Below are positions 5,796-34,080 of a DNA stretch of 46,880 nucleotides, piece after piece (position 1 is the stretch's first letter; the number at the start of each line of letters is the position of its first letter). Source of the DNA: Acutalibacteraceae bacterium (lineage in GTDB: Bacteria; Bacillota; Clostridia; Oscillospirales; Acutalibacteraceae); contig JAZOOE010000011.1 in the NCBI GenBank assembly GCA_045654865.1, positions 1-46,880 on the forward strand, written 5' to 3'. The notes under the pieces are model-generated. The model searched no databases. It had not been told where the DNA came from and worked only from the letters and a program-made list of their open reading frames with translations. The position numbers were made by a program, and so were the translations under genes.

Positions 5796-7085
5796 TTAGC
5801 TTTGACCGGCTTTTTCCTTGGTCGGTAGTTTAAGCCTTATGTCTGCCGTGAACGTCAGATTCTGACAGTCATAAATCAGGTCGCCGTTATATTTCTTAAT
5901 TGTCTTGTTGACGTTTTTCGTTCCGATACCGTGCTCGGCGCGGTTTTTCTTGGTGGTTTTCAGTGTATTATTCTTGCCGATCTTAACGTCCTTTTCCACG
6001 GGATTTGATACGCTGAGAATAAGGTTGTTGTTTCTGACGGCTGACTCTACTCTTATGGTACATCCGCTGAGCCTCTCCGTTGCCTCAATGGCATTGTCAA
6101 TGGTATTGCCGAGAATCGTGCATATATCCTTATCCTCAATTCCCTCTGACGGGAACTGACCGCTGAACACTATTTTATTATCCGACTGAGCGGCAACCAC
6201 TGCCTTTGTGTTCAATATGGTGTCCGCTATGAAATTGCCCGTGGATATTTTATTCAGCGTGCCCGAAATATCCGCATTCATAGCGTTTATATATTCTCTT
6301 GCCCTGTCGGTGCTGCCGCTTTCAAGCAAAGCATTTATAACGATCATGTGATTGCGGTAATCGTGACGGAACTGTCTTAAATTCTCGTCACCCTTGAGCA
6401 TTTTCTCCGAGAAATTTTTCTGATCGTTGAACTGTCGGAGAATTTCGTTTTGCTGATAGGTAAGGGAGAAGATTCTGAAAACGAAGAACAGAACACAGAG
6501 AATAACGCTTATAGTGGAGATAATATAAAGCACGTTATACCATGCGTAGGACTCGCCGAAGCTTTTATAATAGCCCGTCATATCGAAAAACAGAACTGCC
6601 GCAAATATCGGTCGGGGAACGGAGTCGAATACCTGAGGCATTATGTTGTTGGAGGATTGCTTTTGGGTGAATATTATGAAGAAAAGCATCAGAGCGTACA
6701 TTATGATGTATACTATGGCGCGTGCAAAAAGATATTCCGGAATATACGGCGCAAAAAGGGAATAGAACATTTCCATGGTGCACACACATAAAAGCAGGAA
6801 CCAAAGCCGTGTACCTTTTTTTACGTCCTTTGCAAGCCACAACACGCTGAGGGCATAGCAAATGCTTGAAACAACGTCAAGTATCAGCTGCTTGTCCTCC
6901 TCGGTGCCCTTAAAAAAGAAGATACAGAAAACAGCGTTTGCTGCGATTATAGCTCCCACCCCCAGTGCGGCGGGAATATTTTTTTTGAATTTACCTCCCA
7001 GCAGATATACTGAGGCAAAAACAAGAGTTATACATATAAGCACGTCGTGTGCCGTGTATAACAGAAAATCAAGAATGGTTGTCAA
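5796..7085 (-). CDS. AgrC-like membrane sensor histidine kinase (HPK10 type, GHKL ATPase)
   Basis: The N-terminal half is polytopic, with about 6 TM segments. It has the H-box FRHDYRNHMIVINALL, the N-box LGNTIDNAIEA and the G-box EHGIGTKNVNKTIKKYNGDL. It uses a TTG start with GAGGTG 5 nt upstream, 15 nt after the regulator stop. Confidence 0.85.
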   Translation of the reverse strand: MTTILDFLLYTAHDVLICITLVFASVYLLGGKFKKNIPAALGVGAIIAANAVFCIFFFKGTEEDKQLILDVVSSICYALSVLWLAKDVKKGTRLWFLLLCVCTMEMFYSLFAPYIPEYLFARAIVYIIMYALMLFFIIFTQKQSSNNIMPQVFDSVPRPIFAAVLFFDMTGYYKSFGESYAWYNVLYIISTISVILCVLFFVFRIFSLTYQQNEILRQFNDQKNFSEKMLKGDENLRQFRHDYRNHMIVINALLESGSTDRAREYINAMNADISGTLNKISTGNFIADTILNTKAVVAAQSDNKIVFSGQFPSEGIEDKDICTILGNTIDNAIEATERLSGCTIRVESAVRNNNLILSVSNPVEKDVKIGKNNTLKTTKKNRAEHGIGTKNVNKTIKKYNGDLIYDCQNLTFTADIRLKLPTKEKAGQS

Positions 7086-7100
7086 AAAATCACCTCTGGC

Positions 7101-7802
7101 TTACATATCGGCGTATTTGAGAAAGTTCACATATGCCTTGTGGAATAAGGCAAGATTTCTTCTGGATATCTCAATTTTTTCACCGTTTATAAGTGTTATT
7201 ATATGCCCGTCGATTTCGGCAATATATTTCATATTCACAAGAAACGTTCTGTGTGTTCTGAAAAAGCGGAAGCTGTTTATCTCTGAAACAAAGGCAGAAA
7301 GTGCCTTCTGTGAGGTGTAAGAGGTGTTGTTGCATCTTACCGTTGTATATCTTCCGCTTGATTCTATATACATAATCTCGGGTAATGAAACAAATATTGT
7401 GCCCGAGGGCATGGGAATCTCAACTCTGAGATATTGGTCAAAGCTTATAAGAAAGTCATCCAGAGCCTTGAAAAGAGTCTCTTTTTCAATTGGCTTGAGA
7501 AGATAACGGAAGGTGTTTACCTCAAAGCTTTTGAATACATATTCGCTGTATGCTGTTATAAAAATGATAACCGCCCTTTTGTTTGTAAGGCGTATTCTTT
7601 CTGCTATCTCCATTCCCGTTGCATCGGGCAGATTGTAGTCCAAAAGATAAAGATCGTAGTCCTCTGTCGAAGAAAAAAATTCAGCCCCCGTCATAAACGC
7701 ATTCAGCTGATATGAGATATTTTTTTCTTCCATATAGTCAGAAATGAGTGTCTTTAGTATATCAATTGTATAAGCTTCATCTTCACAAATTGCAATTTTC
7801 AT
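7101..7802 (-). CDS. LytTR-family response regulator (AgrA/ComE/PlnC-like)
   Basis: It has the receiver domain MKIAICEDE...LLDYNLPDATG and a C-terminal LytTR domain (IESSGRYTTV...FFRTHRTFLVNMKYI). The RBS is AGGAGAtatgaaatATG. Confidence 0.9.
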   Translation of the reverse strand: MKIAICEDEAYTIDILKTLISDYMEEKNISYQLNAFMTGAEFFSSTEDYDLYLLDYNLPDATGMEIAERIRLTNKRAVIIFITAYSEYVFKSFEVNTFRYLLKPIEKETLFKALDDFLISFDQYLRVEIPMPSGTIFVSLPEIMYIESSGRYTTVRCNNTSYTSQKALSAFVSEINSFRFFRTHRTFLVNMKYIAEIDGHIITLINGEKIEISRRNLALFHKAYVNFLKYADM

Positions 7803-7836
7803 ATTTCATATCTCCTGCCTTAAGTTATTTTACCAC

Positions 7837-7906
7837 AATATAGCACATAAGTAAAAGTATTTTCAATAAAATACGTACGAGTGGTCGATTTTTCGGGCGA
7901 ACGGTA
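7837..7906 (-). promoter_or_regulatory. Putative autoregulated promoter of the LytTR/kinase operon
   Basis: Read on the minus strand, the order is TACCGTTCG (7898-7906), then 20 bp later the degenerate site GACCACTCG (7878-7886), then TTGAAA (7861-7866), an 18-nt spacer, and TGcTATATT (7837-7845). Confidence 0.55.
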
Positions 7907-7971
7907 TTTTTCAGCAAAAAAAATACCGTTCATTACAATAAATATTGTATTATTGTGATTAAGTCTCTATA
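7899..7971 (+). promoter_or_regulatory. Putative LytTR-dependent promoter of LRR protein 1
   Basis: There is a perfect 12-bp inverted repeat, GAACGGTATTTT (7899-7910) / AAAATACCGTTC (7920-7931). The proximal site TACCGTTCATTACA is followed by TATTG and then TATAAT (7966-7971). Confidence 0.6.
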
Positions 7972-8001
7972 ATGAAAGAAAAAAACAAGGAGATAAATGC
8001 T

Positions 8002-11000
8002 ATGAAGAAGCTGTTATTTCTGGCAAGTGTAATTCTTGCTCTGGCTTTTGTTTTTTCTTTTGCCGCGGGTGATGAAAGCTCGGGGCTGTCCCCTGCCGTT
8101 ACGGTATATGCCGCCACTGCCGAGGGAACCTACGGCAATAATATATTCTGGACTATTGACGGTGATACACTTACTATCAGCGGTGAAGGTGCCATGGTTG
8201 ATTATGACCGTGCAAACGATATTCCGTGGTATAAATACAGAGCTGACATTGTTACTGTTAACATTGGGGAAGGTATAACGTCACTCGGATACTATGCTTT
8301 CGGTGAACTTTCTTCTTTAAAGGAAGTCAATATACCGGACAGTGTTACCTCTCTGGGTAAAAGTTTATTTATTGCTTGTGTTTCTCTTGAAAGTATAGAG
8401 CTTCCGTCAGGTATAGAGGAGATTCCCCAGAGTTGCTTTATGGGGTGTTCTTCATTGAAGGAGATAGTTTTTCCTGAAAATCTCAGAGTAATAGGGGTAT
8501 CAGCATTTCATTCCTGTGCTGCTTTGACTGAAATAATTTTTCCCGAAACGCTTGAAGAAATATCTGCGGGTGCATTCGCACAATGTGGTTCACTTGTCAG
8601 AGTTCATATATTTTCTGAAATTGTTTTCTCAGGTAATCCGTTCAGAGACTGTGACAATCTTATAGAATTTAAGGTTAATGAAGAAAACGAACGCTATAAG
8701 GCAATAGATGGCATACTCTACAATAAGGACGGAACTCATATTTATATTTATCCTGTGGGTAGACCTGATAAAACCTTTATTGTTTCCGAAAATATAAAAT
8801 CTATCGGTGTAGGAGTTTTTGAAGGATCAAATTATCTTGAAAGTGTCTATATTTACGCTGACATAATATCTGTTCCATACTATGCTTTTTCAAAGATGGA
8901 ATCTCTTAAATACATTTATCTGCCGCAGAGTATAAGATATATTTATACTTGTGCATTTTCAGAGTGTCCGTCTCTTCGGAGCATCAATATACCTTACGGA
9001 GTTGAAACATTAGATAATCAGGTTTTTTACAAATCAAAGTCTCTTACGAAAATTGTTTTGCCCGCAAGCGTAGTCTCTGTTGATGAAAGTTCATTTGCAT
9101 ATTGTGATGCATTGGAGCAGATTACTGTAATGAATCCAGATTGTGTTATAAAATCTGCATATAACGGTGTATCTGAAAATACGGTAATCAAGGGATATAA
9201 GGGTTCAACAGCGGAGACCTATGCATTGGAAAAGGGCTGTGAATTTGTGGAAATTACGGCATCGGACAGCTTTGATAATAATCTTTTATGGGTGCTTTAT
9301 GAGGACGGTTCTCTTGAAATTTCAGGTGACGGCGAAATGACGGAGTTTGCAAGTGCTTCTGCTGTTCCCTGGTATAAAAATGCAGGAGAAATCAGACAGC
9401 TTCATATAGAAGAGGGTGTAAAAAGTATATCGGCTTTTGCTTTCTATCAATGCAGTGCGCTGAAATCAGTAACGCTTTCCTCTACAATAAAAGAAATCGG
9501 TAATTTTGCTTTCTTTGATTGCATTACACTTGATGCTGTCAATATCGGTGCGTGTGCAGGGCTTGAGATAATCGGGAACAATGCCTTTGGCGGCTGCTCG
9601 TCGCTTTCATCTGTTGATATTCCCGCCGGTGTAAGAGAAATGGGAGAAAACGTATTTCTTCGCTGTACGTCTCTAATGGCTATAAACGTTCATGAAGAAA
9701 ACAACAGCTATTTCTCAGAATCGGGAGTGCTCTTCGGCTCTTACGGGGAAGACGTAGTCCTTATTTGCTATCCTCCTATGAAGGCCGATAAGATTTATAT
9801 TGTTGCAGATAACGTAACGGAAATCGCAGGCAGCGCTTTTGCATACTGCGACCTTATTGAAGAGGTTGAATTTTCACACAGCAGTCAGCTCAGAAGAATC
9901 GGTCAGGCGGCATTCTATGAATGCTCTGCCCTTAAATCCTTTACTGTTCCTCCTATGGTTGAGGAAATAGACGGCAATATTTTTGTTATGTGCTTCAGCC
10001 TTGAGGAAATATACACGGATTTATTCAATGAGCATTTCTTTGCCCGTGACGGCGTTCTTATGGATTGGGATGAAACCACGATCCTCATTTATCCTGCAGG
10101 CTCAAAAAGAACTGAATATATAATCCCCGAAACAATTACCACTATAGCAAAAGAGGCTTTCTGTCATTGTCCCTCTCTTGAAAAGGTGCTGTACCCCCAA
10201 GGAAGTGAGCTTTCCGTAATCAACGAATCTGCTTTTTACAGCTGTGAAAAGCTTTCCTATATAGCTCTTCCCGATTCACTTGAGGAAATCGGCGATTATG
10301 CATTTATGGATTGCACGTCTCTTGGTTTTGTTCATATTCCCGAAAACGTATCCCATATAGGCAGCTTTGCCTTTGGCGGCTGTGCTTCTCTTGAGAAGCT
10401 TGTTTTCTTCACCTTGGATTGTGAAGAATATATGATTATTGATTCTCAGATGTCAGTCACATTCTATGTTTATGAAGGCTCTGAAATTGAAGCTGCGCTC
10501 AGCGGTAAGGGTGAGATAAAATACCTTGTTCAGGTTCCCGAGGATGCGGTTTCCTATGCTGACGGTGTGCTCACGGTAAATCATCTTACGGACATTCCCG
10601 AAGCCGATGATGCATTTTGCTATCCCTGGACAAGATACGTTGGTGAAGCGACAGTTTTTGTTCTCAATCCCGAGCTTTCTGTTGCGGGCGGACTTTTCGA
10701 GGGCTTTTCTGAGGTGAAGACAATTATTGTTAATGCCTCTGCGGATTCCGCTCAGGGCACCATATTCGAAAAGAACGCTTTTGTCGGCTTCTCAAGCCTT
10801 GATATGGTCGTTACCTTTGATGATCTTTCCGTTCGTGACGGCGCTTTTGACGGCAGAGAAGAATTTATAAAATTCTTTGCAGAGGAAAGCATTGTTGTCG
10901 GCGGTGCAGAAAACGTAACCGTATTTTCATTCTCAGAGGGAACAGTCAGCTTTAAAGGAGATGGACTTTCTCTTACTGATTATCAGTTCCTTGATCTTGT

Positions 11001-11376: not shown

Positions 11377-11404
11377 TCATTAATATAATAATACCTTAAT
11401 CACA

Positions 11405-11447
11405 GCAGGCATAAGGCGGTGTAATACCGTTTTGTGCCTGCTTTTTT
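11405..11447 (+). terminator. Intrinsic terminator of LRR protein 1
   Basis: The stem is gcaggcataa (11405-11414) / ttgtgcctgc (11432-11441) with one G-U pair. It is followed by tttttt (11442-11447). Confidence 0.8.
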
Positions 11448-11583
11448 GCTTTATGGGAAAATTCCTCCTGCAAGAAAAAAAGATTATATGTCCTTGTAAC
11501 GGAAGAAGGGCTTTCCCTCGGAGACGTCTATCCGAAAAACGGTCGACTGATGCGTACGGCTAAGCTGTTTTTTGTCGCTTATT

Positions 11584-11652
11584 TACCGTTCGCCCGAGAA
11601 TCCGACCGTTCATTACAAGTGCTATTGTTTTTTGTTTTTTTGGGCTTTATAA
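11584..11652 (+). promoter_or_regulatory. Putative LytTR-dependent promoter of LRR protein 2
   Basis: The direct repeats TACCGTTCG (11584-11592) and GACCGTTCA (11604-11612) start 20 bp apart. They are followed by TTACA, TATTG (11623-11627) and TATAAT (11647-11652). Confidence 0.65.
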
Positions 11653-11729
11653 TCTGAACAACCCCGATGATGACGGGAAAGAATGAACGGTTCAGAGCCG
11701 TTCTCACAAAACCATATTTTTGAAAGGAA

Positions 11730-14069
11730 ATGAAAAAAATGAAAAAAACAGCTTTGACACTCCTTGCAGCTGCTTTTGTTTTCTCTCTCTCATTTGCCCT
11801 TGCGGCTGACTACAGCGCACTTCTTCCCGAAGCCGCCGCAGCAGAGATTCTTGAAAGCGTAACCGTGGGTGATAATATTACCGCAACGCTTTATTCCGAT
11901 TACACTCTTGTTATTGACGGTGAGGGTGAAATGACCGTTCCGTTAGATTCTGCTGATGTAAGATATATTCACAAGATTGTTATCTCTTCCGGAATAACTG
12001 CAATTTGTGAATCTGCATTCAGCGATTTCAGTTATGTAGAGGAGGTCGTTTTTGAGGAAAACAGCCGTCTTGAAAAAATCGGTATTCATGCATTCAGTAG
12101 CTGTTATAGTCTTAATGAGATAAAAATTCCTGCATCGGTTACTCTTATTGACGAGTATGCATTTGCATATTGCTATAATCTCAATACAATAGTTTTTGAA
12201 GAAAACAGCCGTCTCAGAAATATAGGGGATCAGGCTTTTGTCAATATCGGAATAACAGAGCTTTCAATTCCCTCTTCTGTTGAAGAAATCTCCGGTGGTG
12301 CATTTTCAAGCAACAAAAATCTGAAAAGCGTAACCTTTGGTGCTGATTCAAAACTGAAGAGCTTAGGTGAAACAACCGAAAATCTGCCCTACTTATATTA
12401 TAATGGTGTTTTTGCCTATTGTGAGAAGCTTGAGGAAATAAAAATACCTGCAAGTGTAACAGTTATAGGCAATAAAGCATTTTATTACTGTACTAAGCTT
12501 AATAAAGTAGAAATTGAAGCAGGCAGCAAGCTTACGCGAATTGATGAATATGCATTTGCTAACTGCTATGCTATTGCTGAAATCAATTTCCCCGAAGGAC
12601 TTGTGGAAATAGGCAAAGCAGCATTCAGTAATAACTGCTTAACAAAAATAGCAATCCCTGCAAGCGTTGAAGAAATCGGGGAGAATGCATTTGAAGATTG
12701 TAACTATGTATCAGAGATCAGCTTTGCTTCCGGAAGTAAATTAAAGAGCATCGGTGATAGTGCATTCTCCGGTTGTAATGTATTAGAGAAGCTTCAGCTT
12801 CCCACAGGTCTTAAGACGATAGGTGAAAATGCTTTTGATGGATGCTATAAGCTTGACAGTGTAATTCTTCCTGATGGAATTGAGTTTGTCGGTGAGGCGG
12901 CATTTGTAGGTACAGCGGCTTCCGAAATCAGAATTCCTGCCTCTGTAACCTATTTCGGTGCCGGAAGCTACGGAAAGAATCTGGAGAGATACATTGTAGA
13001 AGACGGTAATGAGGTTTATGCTTCTGATTCAAACGGCGCTCTGTTTTCCAAGGATATGACAACGTTATATGTTTATCCCACAGCTTCACCTGCTAAGGAG
13101 TATACAATTCCTCAGGGTGTGCAGACTATTGCAGATTCAGCGTTTCTTTTTAACCTTAATCTTGAAAGTATTAAAATGCCTGATACTGTGAAAGAAATAG
13201 GGGATTTATCCTTAGCAATAATGTTAAGTCTTAAAGAAATACGTTTGTCATCAAAGCTTGAATCTGTAGGAGAAGAGGCTTTCTTAGGATGCTTTTATCT
13301 TGAAGAGCTTGTAATTCCTGCAAGCGTAAGATATATCGGCGCAGATGCTTTCAGTCTTTTGACTTCTGTAAAGAGAATAGAGATACACTCAAGAACTGTT
13401 GATTGTGATGACACGTTCCTCGGATTTTCTGCATTCCTTACAGATGATGTCGCAGAAAATCAGTTCAGAATAGATGTTATGGCAGATTATTATGAGTTCA
13501 TAATGTTCTATGATATATATGCTCCCGAAAATGAGAACAGACTTTATGAAATAAGTGAAAAGCTGGACGGCTTTGTCAATGAAGAAAATATCAGAACCGA
13601 TATTTATACGGTATATTGCTATGAGGGAGCGGTTGTAGAAGCGTATCTCAAGGAAAACAATGTAAAATATGCTTATCTTTGTGCTCATACTGAAATGGAG
13701 GTTATTCCTGCTGTTACTCCCGGTTGTTCCACGGACGGACTTACAGCCGGCATAAAGTGTGCTCTTTGCGGTGAAATTCTCACAGCACAGCAGATCGATC
13801 CTATGATAGGCCATGCTCCCGAAGTTCAGGGCGAAAAGGCTCCCGAAATCGGTGTTCCCGGATACACGGGTGATATGGTCTGCACCGTTTGCGGCGAGAC
13901 TGTTGAATACGGCGAGGAGATACCCGCTCTTGAGGACAATACTCAGCCCGAATGTGACCATATCTGCCACAAGGATGGTGTGCTGGGTATTCTCTGGAAG
14001 ATAATCGGCTTCTTTGCAAAGCTCTTCAAGACAAATCCCGTTTGTGAATGCGGAGCTGCTCACTATTAA
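11730..14069 (+). CDS. Secreted BspA-type LRR surface protein with C-terminal Cys-rich modules and a CxCGxAHY tail
   Basis: It has the signal peptide MKKTALTLLAAAFVFSLSFALA; the ATG at 11739 is perhaps the true start given the AAAGGA spacing. LRR_5-like repeats run throughout. The C-terminus carries two CxxCG modules and then ECDHICHKDGVLGILWKIIGFFAKLFKTNPVCECGAAHY*. Confidence 0.85.
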   Translation: MKKMKKTALTLLAAAFVFSLSFALAADYSALLPEAAAAEILESVTVGDNITATLYSDYTLVIDGEGEMTVPLDSADVRYIHKIVISSGITAICESAFSDFSYVEEVVFEENSRLEKIGIHAFSSCYSLNEIKIPASVTLIDEYAFAYCYNLNTIVFEENSRLRNIGDQAFVNIGITELSIPSSVEEISGGAFSSNKNLKSVTFGADSKLKSLGETTENLPYLYYNGVFAYCEKLEEIKIPASVTVIGNKAFYYCTKLNKVEIEAGSKLTRIDEYAFANCYAIAEINFPEGLVEIGKAAFSNNCLTKIAIPASVEEIGENAFEDCNYVSEISFASGSKLKSIGDSAFSGCNVLEKLQLPTGLKTIGENAFDGCYKLDSVILPDGIEFVGEAAFVGTAASEIRIPASVTYFGAGSYGKNLERYIVEDGNEVYASDSNGALFSKDMTTLYVYPTASPAKEYTIPQGVQTIADSAFLFNLNLESIKMPDTVKEIGDLSLAIMLSLKEIRLSSKLESVGEEAFLGCFYLEELVIPASVRYIGADAFSLLTSVKRIEIHSRTVDCDDTFLGFSAFLTDDVAENQFRIDVMADYYEFIMFYDIYAPENENRLYEISEKLDGFVNEENIRTDIYTVYCYEGAVVEAYLKENNVKYAYLCAHTEMEVIPAVTPGCSTDGLTAGIKCALCGEILTAQQIDPMIGHAPEVQGEKAPEIGVPGYTGDMVCTVCGETVEYGEEIPALEDNTQPECDHICHKDGVLGILWKIIGFFAKLFKTNPVCECGAAHY

Positions 14070-18580: not shown

Positions 18581-19933
18581 CTATTCGGAAATTGCATTTA
18601 ATCGTATTACGAGGGTGAAAACTCCGTCCTCAAATTTTGTGAGCATTTCACCGTCATACTTTTTTGTTGTGCTTTCTATGCTTTTGAGTCCGAAGCCGTG
18701 ATTTTCCCTGTCCCCCTTTGAGGTGGTTCTCATTCCCCCCGAAAATCCCGAGGGAACGCTCAGTGCGGGATTTGAAATGCTTATAACGCTGTAGCTTTCA
18801 TCTCCGTGCATTTTAAGCTTTATATAACGGCTGTCGGGATCGTCGATTTTTCTGTTTGCCTCTATGGCATTGTCAAGGGCGTTACTGAGTATTATGCACA
18901 TATCCACGGGCTTGATGCTGTTTTTTTTCATATTCATAACGTCATAGCTTGTGGTAATGCTGTCAGACTGCGCCTCATAAAGCTTTTCGTTGAGGATAGC
19001 ATCGACTGCGGAAATTCCCGTAATTCTTACGTACTGCGATTCATCGGTTATTCCGCTCATTTCGCGAAGATATTTTTTTATTTCCTCAAGGTCGCCGTTT
19101 TCCGCGAGGATATTCATAGTAAGGATATGATTTTTTATATCGTGGCGGAAATTTCTCGTGCGGTTATAGGCGTTTTCTAAATTTTTAATGGATATTTCCT
19201 GTAACGAAAGCTGAGCGGTGAGCAGATCGTTTTCCCGTTTGATGCTCGCCTGACGCTGATTGAACCAGAACAGCACGAAAACAACGCCGTTTATCAGTAT
19301 TATTCCTATGCAGGAAATATATATGTAAGCCTTTATCTGTTGATTCAGGTTATATGTCTCAATTATATATTGGAATACAGAGAACGTGATAAGGGTTACT
19401 GCGGGCACCAGCAGAAGGCTTATCCACATTCTGAAGGTATTGCTTCCCTTGGCGCTGCCCTTCATAAGCACGCTTATGAGCACCGCAAGAGGTATCATTA
19501 TTATGTTTGAAAGCGTCAGTCTTAAAAGTGCCGAAAAGGCTGAATCCTCATCGGGCGGTACGGAAAAGCTGTTGCATATAAGCTCGTAAAGAAAGCCCGA
19601 TATGATTACGCTGAAGGCAAGAAGCGCCGAAAAGAGTATTCCCGCCGTAAGCTTTTTTTTCAGCCTTCCCGTATACATAGTAAACAGGAAAATTATCAGC
19701 ACCGCACATTCTGCGACGTATCTGAAATTCCCGATTCCCGTGTATTCCTGTAAAAGTATGACTGCCGCCGCAAGGACGACAAAGGGAATATAATCGTGCT
19801 GCTTCATTACGGCACGCGGCTTGAAAAAGTTGTTTATAAGCAGGAAGGCAAGCATGATCTCAAACACCGAGGAGAATATTCTTGCGGTGTTGAGAATTAT
19901 ATCCTGATAATTGTCTGCAATAAATTCAAGCAT
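18581..19933 (-). CDS. AgrC-like membrane sensor histidine kinase (second copy)
   Basis: The N-terminus is polytopic. It has the H-box FRHDIKNHILTMNILAENGD, the N-box LSNALDNAIEA and the G-box NHGFGLKSIESTTKKYDGEM. Confidence 0.85.
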   Translation of the reverse strand: MLEFIADNYQDIILNTARIFSSVFEIMLAFLLINNFFKPRAVMKQHDYIPFVVLAAAVILLQEYTGIGNFRYVAECAVLIIFLFTMYTGRLKKKLTAGILFSALLAFSVIISGFLYELICNSFSVPPDEDSAFSALLRLTLSNIIMIPLAVLISVLMKGSAKGSNTFRMWISLLLVPAVTLITFSVFQYIIETYNLNQQIKAYIYISCIGIILINGVVFVLFWFNQRQASIKRENDLLTAQLSLQEISIKNLENAYNRTRNFRHDIKNHILTMNILAENGDLEEIKKYLREMSGITDESQYVRITGISAVDAILNEKLYEAQSDSITTSYDVMNMKKNSIKPVDMCIILSNALDNAIEANRKIDDPDSRYIKLKMHGDESYSVISISNPALSVPSGFSGGMRTTSKGDRENHGFGLKSIESTTKKYDGEMLTKFEDGVFTLVIRLNAISE

Positions 19934-19936
19934 AGC

Positions 19937-20647
19937 TTATCTCATAGCCCATAAAAAGGCCTCGTTTGTCTCCTTTGCCCGTCTTTTGCTCACGGGAAGA
20001 GTCTCACCCGTGATAAGGGATATTTCGTTTTGCTTAACTGCGCTGATTTTTTTTGCATTTACAAGAAATGACTGATGGCATCGCACGAAATCGTGCTTTT
20101 TCAGCTGCTGCTCAATATCGTCCAGCTTGCCGTAAAAGGAATATTCCTCCGTACCGGTTTTTACGTTGATTATTCTTTTGTCACTTTCAAAATATATTAT
20201 ATCTGAAAGGGGAATGCCTACCGTTTCGGAGGATCTCTGAAAGGTGAAGCGCTCCTCTCCGCTTTTTGTCAGCTCGTCAAGACATTCGTTGAATACCCTT
20301 GCGAAGCCGTGAAGCAGCTCGGGCTTTAATATATACCGGAACGCTTTAACCTCATAGCCGGAGAAAACGTATTCAGCCGAGGAGGTGACGAAGACTATCA
20401 TAACCTTTGAATCAAAGGATCGGATTATTTTGGCGGCTGTCATTCCGTCGCAATCCTTCATTGTAATGTCAAGAAAAATCAGATCAAAGGGGGTATGCCC
20501 CGAGCGGTAACTCTCCACAAGACGGCTGCCGTCGTCAAATACGGTAATGCTGCCGTCGAGCTCAGTTTTTGCAAGACAATCCATGGTGCTCTTCTGCAGA
20601 AAGTCGCATATATATTTTTCATCGTCACAAATGGCAATATTGAGCAT
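19937..20647 (-). CDS. LytTR-family response regulator (second copy)
   Basis: It has the receiver MLNIAICDDE...FLDITMKDCDG and the LytTR C-terminal domain (FESDKRIINV...FVRCHQSFLVNAKKI). Confidence 0.9.
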   Translation of the reverse strand: MLNIAICDDEKYICDFLQKSTMDCLAKTELDGSITVFDDGSRLVESYRSGHTPFDLIFLDITMKDCDGMTAAKIIRSFDSKVMIVFVTSSAEYVFSGYEVKAFRYILKPELLHGFARVFNECLDELTKSGEERFTFQRSSETVGIPLSDIIYFESDKRIINVKTGTEEYSFYGKLDDIEQQLKKHDFVRCHQSFLVNAKKISAVKQNEISLITGETLPVSKRRAKETNEAFLWAMR

Positions 20648-30607: not shown

Positions 30608-31432
30608 TTATTGAGTAAAGCGGGTGGCATACTGACACCTTGAGCATAGATTTTCTTCACAGCGGCTTTGGGAGAAGCCCTCGTATATTTTAACCGCTCT
30701 CGGGCTGTTGATTATATCCCCGAGGTTTTCGTTGAACAGATTGCCCAAAGGGATAGCGCCGTCCGCATCAAGACAGCAGGGCACCACGGTGCCGTCTGAG
30801 AGTATGCCTACATGATCGCGAAGTCCCATACAGAAGTGCACGTCCTGCCTCGGAGCATTGCTGTCGGGCCATATAAATTTCTGAGCCGATTCAAGATATA
30901 TTTTATCGGACAGTGTGTATCCCTTTCTGTTTTCTTTGAACGTGAATTCATTTTTCAGTACAGCGAGGATTTTATCGTTAAGAGAATTTTCTCCGCCCTC
31001 GTTCCAGAGCCTCAGCACGCAAATCGTACCAAGCTTTTCCGCTTTTTTGCAGAAGCTTATAATGTCGGACATATATTCCTCAAGGGAAACGGCAGTTTCG
31101 TTTGCCTCAAAGGAATGTAAAGAAAAGGTTACCTTATAGGGCACAGCTTCAAGAAGCTCATTGCCGCGCTTTGAAATAAGGAAACCGTTGGTTGCGACGG
31201 TGCAATTAAAACCGTCTGCGGCGGCTTTTTTCAAAAAATATGAAATATGGGGATGCAAAAGCGGCTCACCCATTAAATGAAAATACAGATATTTCGTATG
31301 CCCGTAAAGCTTCGGCAGAAGTCGGTCGAATTCTTCAACCGAAAGATATTTTTTGCTTCTTGAGGTTTTGTGGCAAAAGCTGCATTCAAGATTGCAAACG
31401 TTTGTTATTTCAAGATAGATCTTTTTGAACAT
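30608..31432 (-). CDS. Small radical SAM enzyme with a C-terminal SPASM/twitch-like Cys cluster
   Basis: It has CNLECSFC (Cx3Cx2C) at residues 13-20. The C-terminal cysteines are PCCLDADG...CEENLCSRCQY. The protein is 274 aa. Confidence 0.8.
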   Translation of the reverse strand: MFKKIYLEITNVCNLECSFCHKTSRSKKYLSVEEFDRLLPKLYGHTKYLYFHLMGEPLLHPHISYFLKKAAADGFNCTVATNGFLISKRGNELLEAVPYKVTFSLHSFEANETAVSLEEYMSDIISFCKKAEKLGTICVLRLWNEGGENSLNDKILAVLKNEFTFKENRKGYTLSDKIYLESAQKFIWPDSNAPRQDVHFCMGLRDHVGILSDGTVVPCCLDADGAIPLGNLFNENLGDIINSPRAVKIYEGFSQSRCEENLCSRCQYATRFTQ

Positions 31433-31702: not shown

Positions 31703-33961
31703 TTATAATGATTCAAGTCCTACAGAGGCTCGCAGAATAAGTCTTGCATCTGAGGATGTGATTTCGCCGTCCTTATCAGCATCAGCTGCCTTGAATTCGG
31801 GTGTGCCGGGAAGATATTTTTCAAGTCCTACGGAGGCTCTCAGCGCAAAGCGTGCATCCGAAGAGGTTATAAGCTCGTCACCGTCTATATCACCCGATAC
31901 CACGGGCTTTTTGCCCGTAAGCTCGCCGCAAAGGTCGCATCTGCCGTCAAATTCGCTGTCGGTATGCTCATCGGCACCATGCTTTACAACACGGTTTCCG
32001 TCAAGCACATAGCCGACGGGAATGTAAAGGTATCTCGTTTCGTCCATTGTGTATTTGCCGGTCTGAGGAACCATAAAATACACCATATCGAAGCGGTATT
32101 CCTTTTCACCGTCCGAAAGCTGATCCTTCAGCGTGTTCTGTGTTGTTTCGGCTCCGATATACAAGCACTCTTCTTCGTTGTTGGGGTCAAACTTATATAA
32201 GGTCTTGCCCGTAATTTTTTGTTGAGTGGAAATCTCGGTTTCTCCCACATGTATATTTACGGGGGATATGATTCTTTGCATTGTTGCGTGAGCCCAGTTT
32301 CCGAAGCCCTGACCGAAATCGGTTTCGTAGCGGTCCTCGATTATATAAAGGTTCCAGTATTCGTTTGTATCGCCCTCAAAGCTTTTCTTTACATTGGTTT
32401 GCGGCTTGCTGATAGTGTGGTCTGATTCAATATCGTTTTTATCCTTCCATTGAGGCATCCAGGGGGAAACTATACGGAATTTGCCGGATTCGGTTAGTTT
32501 TACGTAGTAGGTTGCGCCTCTTATAAGTTCGTAATTGAATCCGCCGCTGAATCCGTCTGCAAAGCTGCCACCCTCGCCCTCTGCAGGAATAATTCTGCCG
32601 TTTGCATCATACACCGTATAATCCCCCTTGCGTATAAAGACGGAGGTTGAGGGGGCTGTGAAGGTGAACCATTGGGGATTTTCCTCGGAAGCCTCGATAT
32701 CCACGGTTTTGCCGATTTCTATTTCCGGAACGTCTGCGGGAATCGGCTCGGTTTCGGGCGCGTGCCTTTCGAAGGTGACGGAGAAGCACGGCTCGGTATA
32801 GAAGCCTTCACGGACTATTGTAACGTACAGACTTCCCTGATAGTCGTCGTCTTTCATGCTTGTGAGCTTTCCGGTGAGTCTTCCGTTTTCGTCAAGGGTA
32901 AGTCCGTCGGGAGCGGAGAAAAACAGTTTTCTGCTGTAGCCTTTGTCGGCAAACTCGATAAGCTGTATATCTATTTCTTCGTTTTCAGCCAAATAAATGG
33001 TTTCTGCATGGATTACCTGCTCGGGCAGAGTATCTATAACCTCGTTGCAATCAATAACGTTTGCCGTGAATATACCCTTGAAGGCTGCTACAGAGATTAT
33101 TCCTTCATTTTTGCCGATTCCATTGATGCGGATATACCAGTTGCTTCTGCCGCTGATAACTTCATACAGCTTGTCATACATTACGCATACAGTTCTGCCG
33201 TCCGTGTATTCGATTGTGCATTTTATATTTTCGTCTGATATAACAGAGCTTCGGGGACCGTCCATCATAATCTCAGAGGTGAAAAAGCTGTCCTCAAAAC
33301 AGTTATAGCCGAGATAAAGAGGATAAATAAACTCCGCGCTTATATTTTTTATTGTGCAGGGGGTGACGATTGCACTTACGTAGCAGCTGCAGCCGCTGTA
33401 GCGGATACGTATATAGTGCTCACCCTCTGTCCAGTTTTCGGAATATTGATCTGTTATATAGTAAACCTCATAATCGGGAATTACGGAGCCGTCAGATGCC
33501 TCAAAATCATATCTGTAATCTTCACGGCGCGCAACAAAATCTTTTACGGTGCCGTCGGAATAGGTTACCGTGAGAATATCGCCCTCTCTGGTGTCAACGG
33601 TAAAAATGCCGCTTGAGCTTGCGTCGGTTTTATATTCAAAGGAATAGGGTGTGACGGGTGTGTAGAAAATTTCTTCCACGTAAATACCGTCATTCTCAGG
33701 ATAAGTGGTGCCACCCTCATAGCCGCCCGTTGTGGTTTCTTCATAATATCCGGTTGTTCCCTCGTAATATCCGGTTGTTGTTTCCTCATAGTACCCTGTG
33801 GTTGTTTCTTCGTAATATCCTGTGGTTGTTTCCTCGTAATAGTCCGTCGGGGCTGCCCTTGATACAAGGAGAGGAAGCTCTGCAATAAAGCAGGAGAGAA
33901 GAATAACTGCTGCAAAAATAACTGAAAGAATTTTTTTTGCAGTGATACTTGTTTTAGTCAT
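31703..33961 (-). CDS. Secreted dockerin-containing protein of unknown function with an N-terminal YYEETTTG repeat linker
   Basis: It has a signal/anchor sequence (KKILSVIFAAVILLSCFIA) and four to five YYEETTTG units. The C-terminal type-I dockerin has the duplicated segments DIDGDELITSSDARFALRASVGL and DADKDGEITSSDARLILRASVGL. Confidence 0.85.
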   Translation of the reverse strand: MTKTSITAKKILSVIFAAVILLSCFIAELPLLVSRAAPTDYYEETTTGYYEETTTGYYEETTTGYYEGTTGYYEETTTGGYEGGTTYPENDGIYVEEIFYTPVTPYSFEYKTDASSSGIFTVDTREGDILTVTYSDGTVKDFVARREDYRYDFEASDGSVIPDYEVYYITDQYSENWTEGEHYIRIRYSGCSCYVSAIVTPCTIKNISAEFIYPLYLGYNCFEDSFFTSEIMMDGPRSSVISDENIKCTIEYTDGRTVCVMYDKLYEVISGRSNWYIRINGIGKNEGIISVAAFKGIFTANVIDCNEVIDTLPEQVIHAETIYLAENEEIDIQLIEFADKGYSRKLFFSAPDGLTLDENGRLTGKLTSMKDDDYQGSLYVTIVREGFYTEPCFSVTFERHAPETEPIPADVPEIEIGKTVDIEASEENPQWFTFTAPSTSVFIRKGDYTVYDANGRIIPAEGEGGSFADGFSGGFNYELIRGATYYVKLTESGKFRIVSPWMPQWKDKNDIESDHTISKPQTNVKKSFEGDTNEYWNLYIIEDRYETDFGQGFGNWAHATMQRIISPVNIHVGETEISTQQKITGKTLYKFDPNNEEECLYIGAETTQNTLKDQLSDGEKEYRFDMVYFMVPQTGKYTMDETRYLYIPVGYVLDGNRVVKHGADEHTDSEFDGRCDLCGELTGKKPVVSGDIDGDELITSSDARFALRASVGLEKYLPGTPEFKAADADKDGEITSSDARLILRASVGLESL
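33707..33841 (-). repeat. Tandem ~24-bp coding repeats (YYEETTTG units)
   Basis: The unit ggttgtttc(c/t)tc(g/a)taatatcc(t/g)gt is reiterated 5 times, once as a 21-bp unit. These encode residues ~41-85. Confidence 0.85.
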
Positions 33962-34011: not shown

Positions 34012-34080
34012 ATTTTAGTCTCCTGAAAAATTAAAGCAATAGGCTATGTAATGAACGGTCGATTTTTGGTATGAACGGTA
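34012..34080 (-). promoter_or_regulatory. Putative LytTR-dependent promoter of the dockerin protein gene
   Basis: On the minus strand the order is TACCGTTCA (34072-34080), then 20 bp later GACCGTTCA (34052-34060), followed by TTACA, TATTG and TAAAAT (34012-34017). The geometry is identical to that at 11584-11652. Confidence 0.65.

Follow-up and report, generated by a model that had tools for sequence, protein, structure and literature searches.

A conserved two-box promoter module as the putative site of a LytTR response regulator ahead of surface-protein genes in an uncultured Acutalibacteraceae bacterium

Introduction

Promoters controlled by response regulators of the LytTR type are the closest described counterparts of the locus analysed in the present work. 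These regulators recognise repeats of 9 bp with 12 bp between them; in the case of SilA, the repeats are 10 bp long and the spacer 11 bp (PMC2766830). The VirR boxes of C. perfringens and the RgaR targets of C. difficile are both made up of two imperfect direct repeats about 21 bp apart, located just upstream of the -35 region; at spoZ, whose promoter depends on RgaR, the G residues critical to the repeats occupy -51 and -72 (PMC10602386). The regulons of VirR and of RgaS-RgaR are small, comprising toxins, agrBD or a small RNA; the AgrC-like kinase and the LytTR regulator are not located beside peptide-pheromone genes, and RgaS and RgaR are unlinked.

In the agr system of S. aureus, the divergent P2/P3 region embeds LytTR boxes for both the regulator operon and the target transcript, the kinase is of the HPK10 type, and the P2 site corresponds to ACAGTTAAG-N12-ACAGTTAGG (PMC8228455). 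The two promoters have an over-long -35/-10 spacing (18-20 nt); they are suboptimal and depend on the activator (PMC4227749). Lastly, ComE, BlpR, SilA and the lactobacillal PlnC/D act on several operons through direct repeats of 9-10 bp, between which lies an AT-rich spacer of 11-12 bp (PMC2766830); their own two-component operon is auto-induced, and the targets are bacteriocin or competence genes.

Virtually nothing has been described about how gut Clostridia regulate BspA-type LRR and dockerin surface proteins, and the literature library that was searched contained no paper joining LytTR with Acutalibacteraceae. We analysed a stretch of 46,880 nucleotides (the window) belonging to the 2.5-Mb draft MAG (74% complete) of an uncultured Acutalibacteraceae bacterium; the stretch was found in three gut-metagenome DNA runs and in zero RNA runs. 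It carries two paralogous genes coding for LRR proteins (LRR1 and LRR2), next to a kinase and a LytTR regulator. A first-pass annotation of the same DNA had proposed that LRR1, LRR2, the regulator and a dockerin gene share one activator-dependent promoter module with two half-sites, which would mark out a small set of co-regulated surface or secreted proteins.

Results

The promoter module upstream of LRR2

On a direct read of the sequence, the two half-sites (the proximal one, GACCGTTCA, spanning 11604-11612), the TTACA at 11613-11617 and the TATTG at 11623-11627 were all exactly where the first-pass annotation had placed them (Table 1). TACCGTTCG and GACCGTTCA are alike at seven of nine positions, with an identical ACCGTTC core; the start-to-start distance of the repeats is 20 bp at LRR2 and at the dockerin gene of the window, and 21 bp in a further module on contig C223 (see below). 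TATTG contains the TTG of the -35 hexamer TTGTTT, which is separated from the end of the proximal box by 12 nt and whose TTG lies exactly 20 nt from the start of the proximal core (ACC, 11605). The -35 region had been described as weak, and in fact TTGTTT agrees with the consensus at three of six positions and was missed by a consensus promoter scan.

Some of the other positions had to be shifted. The TATAAT of LRR2 had been assigned to 11647-11652, which reads TTATAA; that of LRR1 lies at 7968-7973 and not at 7966, and the upstream stretch ccgaaaaacggtcgactgatgcgtacgg, reported at 11533-11560, is found one base leftward (11532-11559). Hence, the constant geometry claimed between the C of CATTACA and the -10 stands, as does the value of 36 nt at the dockerin promoter, but those given for LRR2 (36 nt) and LRR1 (35 nt) both become 37 nt.

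Table 1. Coordinates of the features of the window
Feature	Position	Strand	Details
AgrC-like (HPK10-type) histidine kinase	5796-7085	-	about 6 hydrophobic segments; H-box FRHDYRNH; HATPase_c_5
Response regulator, receiver and LytTR DNA-binding domains	7101-7802	-	233 aa; domain match E 1e-21; proposed binder of the boxes
Regulator's own promoter module	7878-7906	-	TACCGTTCG 7906->7898; spacer CCCGAAAAATC; degenerate proximal box GACCACTCG 7886->7878
Single strong box of the LRR1 promoter, TACCGTTCATTACA	7924-7936	+	-10 at 7968-7973
Intrinsic terminator of the LRR1 transcript	11404-11452 (also delimited as 11404-11442)	+	strong; 18-pair stem, then T-run
Distal LytTR-type box TACCGTTCG	11584-11592	+	read from sequence; 14.3 bits; G at 11588 at about -72 (predicted start)
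11-nt spacer CCCGAGAATCC	11593-11603	+	fits the conserved CCCGAAAAA-type spacer, a motif common across species; aligns with the regulator-promoter spacer
Proximal LytTR-type box GACCGTTCA with conserved TTACA extension	11604-11617	+	14.9 bits; G at 11608 at about -52 (predicted start)
Weak -35 hexamer TTGTTT	11625-11630	+	from the sequence and the 21-promoter alignment
-10 hexamer TATAAT	11648-11653	+	17 nt past the -35
Leader element, hairpin GAACGG-ttcagag-CCGTTC	11684-11704		holds a third half-site
LRR protein 2, BspA-type LRR_5 repeats	11739-14069	+	domain match; ATG 11739, preceded by GGA as ribosome-binding site, is the likely start
Identical two-box module TACCGTTCA-N11-GACCGTTCATTACA	34047-34080	-	upstream of the dockerin-protein gene 31703-33961 (-)

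Since the LRR1 transcript ends at a strong terminator, LRR2 needs a promoter of its own; its transcription would start at about 11660. The N-terminus of LRR2 is signal-peptide-like (MKKTALTLLAAAFVFSLSFALA). Within the 5' leader, at about +25 to +33, a third perfect half-site of full strength (AACCGTTCA, 11692->11684) is inverted relative to the other two. ACCGTTCA has only 106 copies genome-wide, so that a chance occurrence in the leader is unlikely; the half-site and its hairpin could act as an operator or as a roadblock, could fold into an RNA structure, or could be a relic. The hairpin is only mildly more stable than shuffled sequences (z = -1.8), the search of the leader/intergenic region against Rfam gave nothing below E = 0.1, and no consistent counterpart of the inverted box was seen in the other promoters. 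A simple activation model leaves this element unaccounted for.

The regulator pair and the divergent region

The hydrophobic segments, the FRHDYRNH motif and the HATPase_c_5 domain of the kinase, together with the adjacent LytTR regulator, make this pair AgrC/AgrA-like. Residues 1-205 of the regulator align with ComE (4cbv), revealing full-length sequence similarity; a second alignment pairs residues 131-222 with chain 3d6w (111 residues), which was deposited under the name of methyl-accepting/DNA response regulator. Both genes are transcribed divergently from LRR1. The region between the regulator gene and LRR1 (7802-8002) embeds two weaker modules arranged back to back, each consisting of one strong and one degenerate box, scoring 18 bits for the one facing the regulator operon and 15 bits for the one facing LRR1. 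As the latter has only one good box in this genome, the dependence of LRR1 on a dimer is less clear. In the ORF list, LRR1 starts at ATG 7972, which falls within the -10 TATAAT; the true start is probably ATG 8002, after AAGGAG (MKKLLFLASV…).

Rarity of the module in the genome

ACCGTTC occurs 14 times in the window, versus 4.1 ± 1.7 times in shuffled sequences. In the whole genome there are 340 copies, 9.4% of them in the 9.3% that is non-coding, i.e., with no enrichment outside genes. The pair is another matter: three exact ACCGTTC-N12-14-ACCGTTC pairs were observed in the 2.5-Mb draft genome versus 0.07 expected. A scan with a position weight matrix (PWM) assigned 29-30 bits to the three exact modules versus 20.8 bits for the best hit in the reversed-genome null; the PWM was derived from the very sites that it ranks top, the exact-match counts being independent of it. 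All three exact modules are intergenic and point to an ORF 69-117 nt downstream, namely LRR2, the dockerin protein and, on contig C223, a 240-residue lipoprotein-like protein with a Thr/Pro-rich linker and a Cys-rich C-terminal domain; each of these proteins has a predicted signal peptide. Moreover, the 13-mer ACCGTTCATTACA has four copies in the genome, every one located in one of these promoters. The genome-wide scan that had been suggested as a check thus places the top modules all upstream of genes for signal-peptide proteins and zero inside genes, supporting the proposed small surface/secreted regulon with its shared two-half-site module.

Conservation across relatives

Among 40 relatives, both the module and an orthologue of the regulator were found in one genome only, G013 (74% identity; the next best match has 45%). 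Ten orthologous regulator loci with 58-74% identity were retrieved from Acutalibacteraceae/Clostridia MAGs from ruminant guts, and the box-spacer-box arrangement is kept in the regulator promoter at all ten, in addition to this genome. Where enough upstream sequence is available, the reverse complement of ACCGTTC(A/G)TTACA is also kept, facing a divergent gene whose product has a signal-peptide-like N-terminus and the GxCGxNxxW motif, as in the LRR proteins of the window. Elsewhere in the other species the modules likewise precede genes for signal-peptide-like proteins, several of them with GxCGxNxxW; in G013 they stand before the genes for two or three LRR_5-like proteins and for a dockerin protein with 35% identity to that of the window. 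G440 has a box pair whose proximal member is degenerate (ACCGCTG, differing at two positions); this pair precedes an LRR2 homologue (43% identity) and follows the terminator of the first LRR gene, which is the syntenic position of the module in the window.

The alignment of 21 promoters from seven genomes gave the consensus tACCGTTCrCCCgAAAAA..gACCGTTCaTTACA-N7-TTG-(16-17)-TAtAaT, in which the boxes, the TTG of the -35 (in column in most sequences) and the -10 are column-fixed while the flanks have diverged. Most of the aligned promoters contain TACCGTTCrCCCGAAAAA (distal box plus spacer) and about half of them the proximal ACCGTTCaTTACA. The 3' extensions differ by box across species, with CCCGAAAAA following the distal box and TTACA the proximal one. 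The spacers of LytTR sites are usually merely AT-rich, and a spacer conserved in sequence is unusual.

A decayed module of the LRR2 type was also seen in G013 (contig C49, locus L018, 6228-6300), where the distal box is intact, the proximal one has decayed to AACTGCTTG, and TTACA, TATTG and the -10 are retained. It occupies the syntenic LRR2 position with no LRR gene downstream, which suggests a gene loss in that species.

A scan for ACCGTTCATTACA matched 37 of about 400 other genomes of the family, about four times the reversed control. The matches fetched as loci (including one of the four in G137) contained no two-box module, and most of them apparently lie in coding sequence; the excess does not speak for a wider spread of the module.

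Discussion

Comparison with the known LytTR systems

The module upstream of LRR2 shares with the sites of LytTR regulators the imperfect direct repeats of about 9 bp, the 11-13-bp spacer, the recurrence at 20-22 bp, the location of the boxes just upstream of a poor -35, and the presence nearby of a presumably cognate regulator with boxes in its own promoter. ACCGTTCAT fits nine of nine, and ACCGTTCGC eight of nine, positions of the LytTR consensus reportedly given by Nikolskaya and Galperin in 2002, [TA][AC][CA]GTTN[AG][TG]. With their spacer of 11-12 nt and 20-21-bp phasing, the two also fit the rule of 9-bp repeats and a 12-bp spacer (PMC2766830).

As in the VirR and RgaR promoters, the two imperfect direct repeats, about 21 bp apart, stand just upstream of the -35; as regards the critical G residues, -51 and -72 at spoZ compare with about -52 and -72 here, given the predicted start. 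The small size of the regulon, here a predicted one, and the location of an AgrC-like kinase and a LytTR regulator away from peptide-pheromone genes are also shared. Conversely, the box (ACCGTTCA) is unlike the VirR-type box, kinase and regulator form one operon whereas RgaS and RgaR are unlinked, and LRR and dockerin surface proteins take the place of toxins, agrBD or a small RNA among the predicted targets. With the agr system of S. aureus, the locus has in common the divergent region serving the regulator operon and a target transcript, the HPK10-type kinase, the suboptimal promoters, activator-dependent in that system (PMC4227749), and the letters AC-GTT-A, shared by the P2 repeats and ACCGTTCAT; nevertheless, the -35/-10 spacing is the normal 16-17 nt instead of 18-20 nt, and the boxes carry unlike conserved 3' extensions (CCCGAAAAA and TTACA). 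The ComE/BlpR/SilA and PlnC/D systems (PMC2766830) resemble it in repeat and spacer length, in serving several operons and in the auto-induction of the two-component operon, which is here a prediction, but differ in their bacteriocin or competence targets.

The polytopic HPK10-type kinase and the LytTR regulator of an agrBDCA locus are both present; in the 74%-complete genome, AgrB (PF04647) is absent and no agrD was found. Similarly, the double-glycine peptide gene and the C39 peptidase (PF03412) ABC exporter expected of a ComCDE/Blp/Pln system were not found in the genome, the absence of the exporter being provisional because the assembly is incomplete. None of the ten orthologous loci has a peptide-pheromone candidate beside the two-component genes. 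The lack of AgrB and of the C39 exporter argues for an Agr/VirSR-like way of working rather than for an agrBDCA or comCDE locus.

A putative target of the LytTR regulator

Five features of the module were observed directly: how it is built, how rare it is, where it is located, that other species conserve it, and that it occurs together with the regulator. They lead us to propose, with a probability of about 0.85, that the LytTR regulator encoded at 7101-7802, the partner of the AgrC-like kinase, binds to the module at 11584-11617. According to this proposal, which is built on sequence comparison, the regulator, once phosphorylated in response to whatever signal the kinase may sense, would occupy both 9-bp direct repeats as a dimer, the repeats starting 20 nt from each other and being centred at about -72 and -52; sitting immediately upstream of the weak -35, the dimer would recruit RNA polymerase to the LRR2 promoter (activation of the class-I type). 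From the position of the boxes and the weak -35 we infer activation rather than repression. The same regulator would feed back on its own operon and control LRR1, the dockerin-protein gene and the C223 lipoprotein-like gene, which together with LRR2 and the operon itself would constitute a small secreted/surface-protein regulon.

The sequence of the boxes alone cannot assign the site to one paralogue, and the genome encodes four proteins with a LytTR domain: the regulator proposed here, a second response regulator (RR2, 19937-20647) and two small proteins on contigs C264 and C9. The site might, in principle, be bound by RR2, by a small LytTR protein from another contig or by an unrelated factor. 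We consider this very unlikely, given that the module tracks the orthologue of the 7101-7802 regulator perfectly and occurs in the own promoter of that regulator in 11 genomes. As for RR2, 20 of 24 congeneric genomes have an orthologue of it (59-86% identity); since 19 of these 20 lack the module, it was excluded as the binder. The pair to which RR2 belongs, a second AgrC-like kinase plus LytTR regulator (18581-20647, -), is conserved in 20 of the 24 congeners and has no relation to the module.

A pair of similar 9-mers might also arise by chance in an AT-rich intergenic region, the more so as the lone ACCGTTC is common and shows no preference for non-coding DNA; this reading is effectively refuted by the excess of exact pairs and by the gap between 29-30 bits and the null maximum reported above, as well as by the constant geometry to -35 and -10 in all modules and by the conservation in other species. 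It might further be imagined that the module is a cassette copied along with the LRR paralogues, or moved by recombination, with no present regulatory role. The paralogy of LRR1 and LRR2 would agree with such an origin, as would the match between the 5' half of the LRR2 module and the regulator promoter, the occurrence of one identical 27-mer in three modules of genome G442, and the decayed G013 module with no downstream gene. Yet the module precedes unrelated genes (for the dockerin protein, the Cys-rich lipoprotein, an M23-like peptidase and an FN3 protein), identity does not extend beyond the boxes, the spacer motif, the -35 TTG and the -10, flanks and leaders being different, and selection is required for the architecture to have been kept in species with regulators of only 58-74% identity. 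A mere by-product of duplication is therefore highly improbable.

Origin of the likeness between the promoters

The first-pass annotation had suggested that the regulatory region of LRR2 was copied and rearranged from the divergent promoter. The halves do match the divergent promoters: the 5' half of the LRR2 module agrees with the regulator promoter at 21 of 24 positions, spacer included, and the 3' half aligns to the LRR1 promoter. A recent copy has less in its favour. The spacer motif and TTACA are shared by several species and the G440 box pair is syntenic, so that the likeness would reflect an old, selected site architecture, which explains it better than recent copying. The reported resemblance of the upstream stretch to the reverse complement of about 7864-7893 exists as an alignment but is only marginal (score 22 versus 15.1 ± 2.5); for the local alignment of 11532-11575, 11 of 500 shuffles score as well. 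The interpretation of 11532-11575 as a decayed second module was set aside as a mere possibility, its statistics being marginal and its half-sites reaching at most 5.2 bits.

Meaning of the module

Most likely, the TACCGTTCG/GACCGTTCA repeats are a conserved, ordinary case of the known activator-dependent type of LytTR promoter, and as to mechanism they would add nothing new for LytTR regulators. Their value is rather that they outline a concrete predicted regulon for an uncultured gut Firmicute, with five promoters and counterparts in at least nine other MAGs, and that they connect surface proteins, both LRR (BspA-type) and dockerin, with an orphan sensor resembling AgrCA. The consensus reported above, from the distal box to the TTG of the -35, could also serve the annotation of such regulons in metagenomes.

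We mention, as a speculative and rather unlikely possibility, that the AgrC/AgrA-like pair acts as a peptide-independent or eavesdropping sensor, without pheromone genes of its own, through which a host, dietary or foreign-species trigger would switch on a programme of BspA-type, adhesin-like LRR and dockerin surface proteins in uncultured Acutalibacteraceae of the herbivore gut. In such a sensor system, the inverted third box of the LRR2 leader might provide negative control as a second layer.

Further observations on the genes behind the modules

In the window, a gene coding for a radical-SAM/SPASM protein of 274 residues (30608-31432, -) is located 270 nt downstream of the module-preceded dockerin gene. 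On contig C223 (3-1449, -), two adjoining paralogues have in common a C-terminal domain rich in Cys (…CEYCGK…CPECGVFV); one of them has a lipoprotein-type signal and the upstream module, the other an N-terminal dockerin-like repeat. A module-preceded lipoprotein of G441 (locus L085) likewise has the CEYC motif (YYYVCEYCDATK).

In the genome of locus L054 (G442), the identical 27-mer mentioned above, ACCGTTCGCCCGAAAAAACGACCGTTC, occurs in three promoters (C46:19964, C109:4530 and C116:22464), which points to a larger regulon in that species; in the two examined, the flanks are unrelated, as are the secreted-protein genes that follow (for a 1527-residue SGNVT-repeat protein and an FN3 protein).
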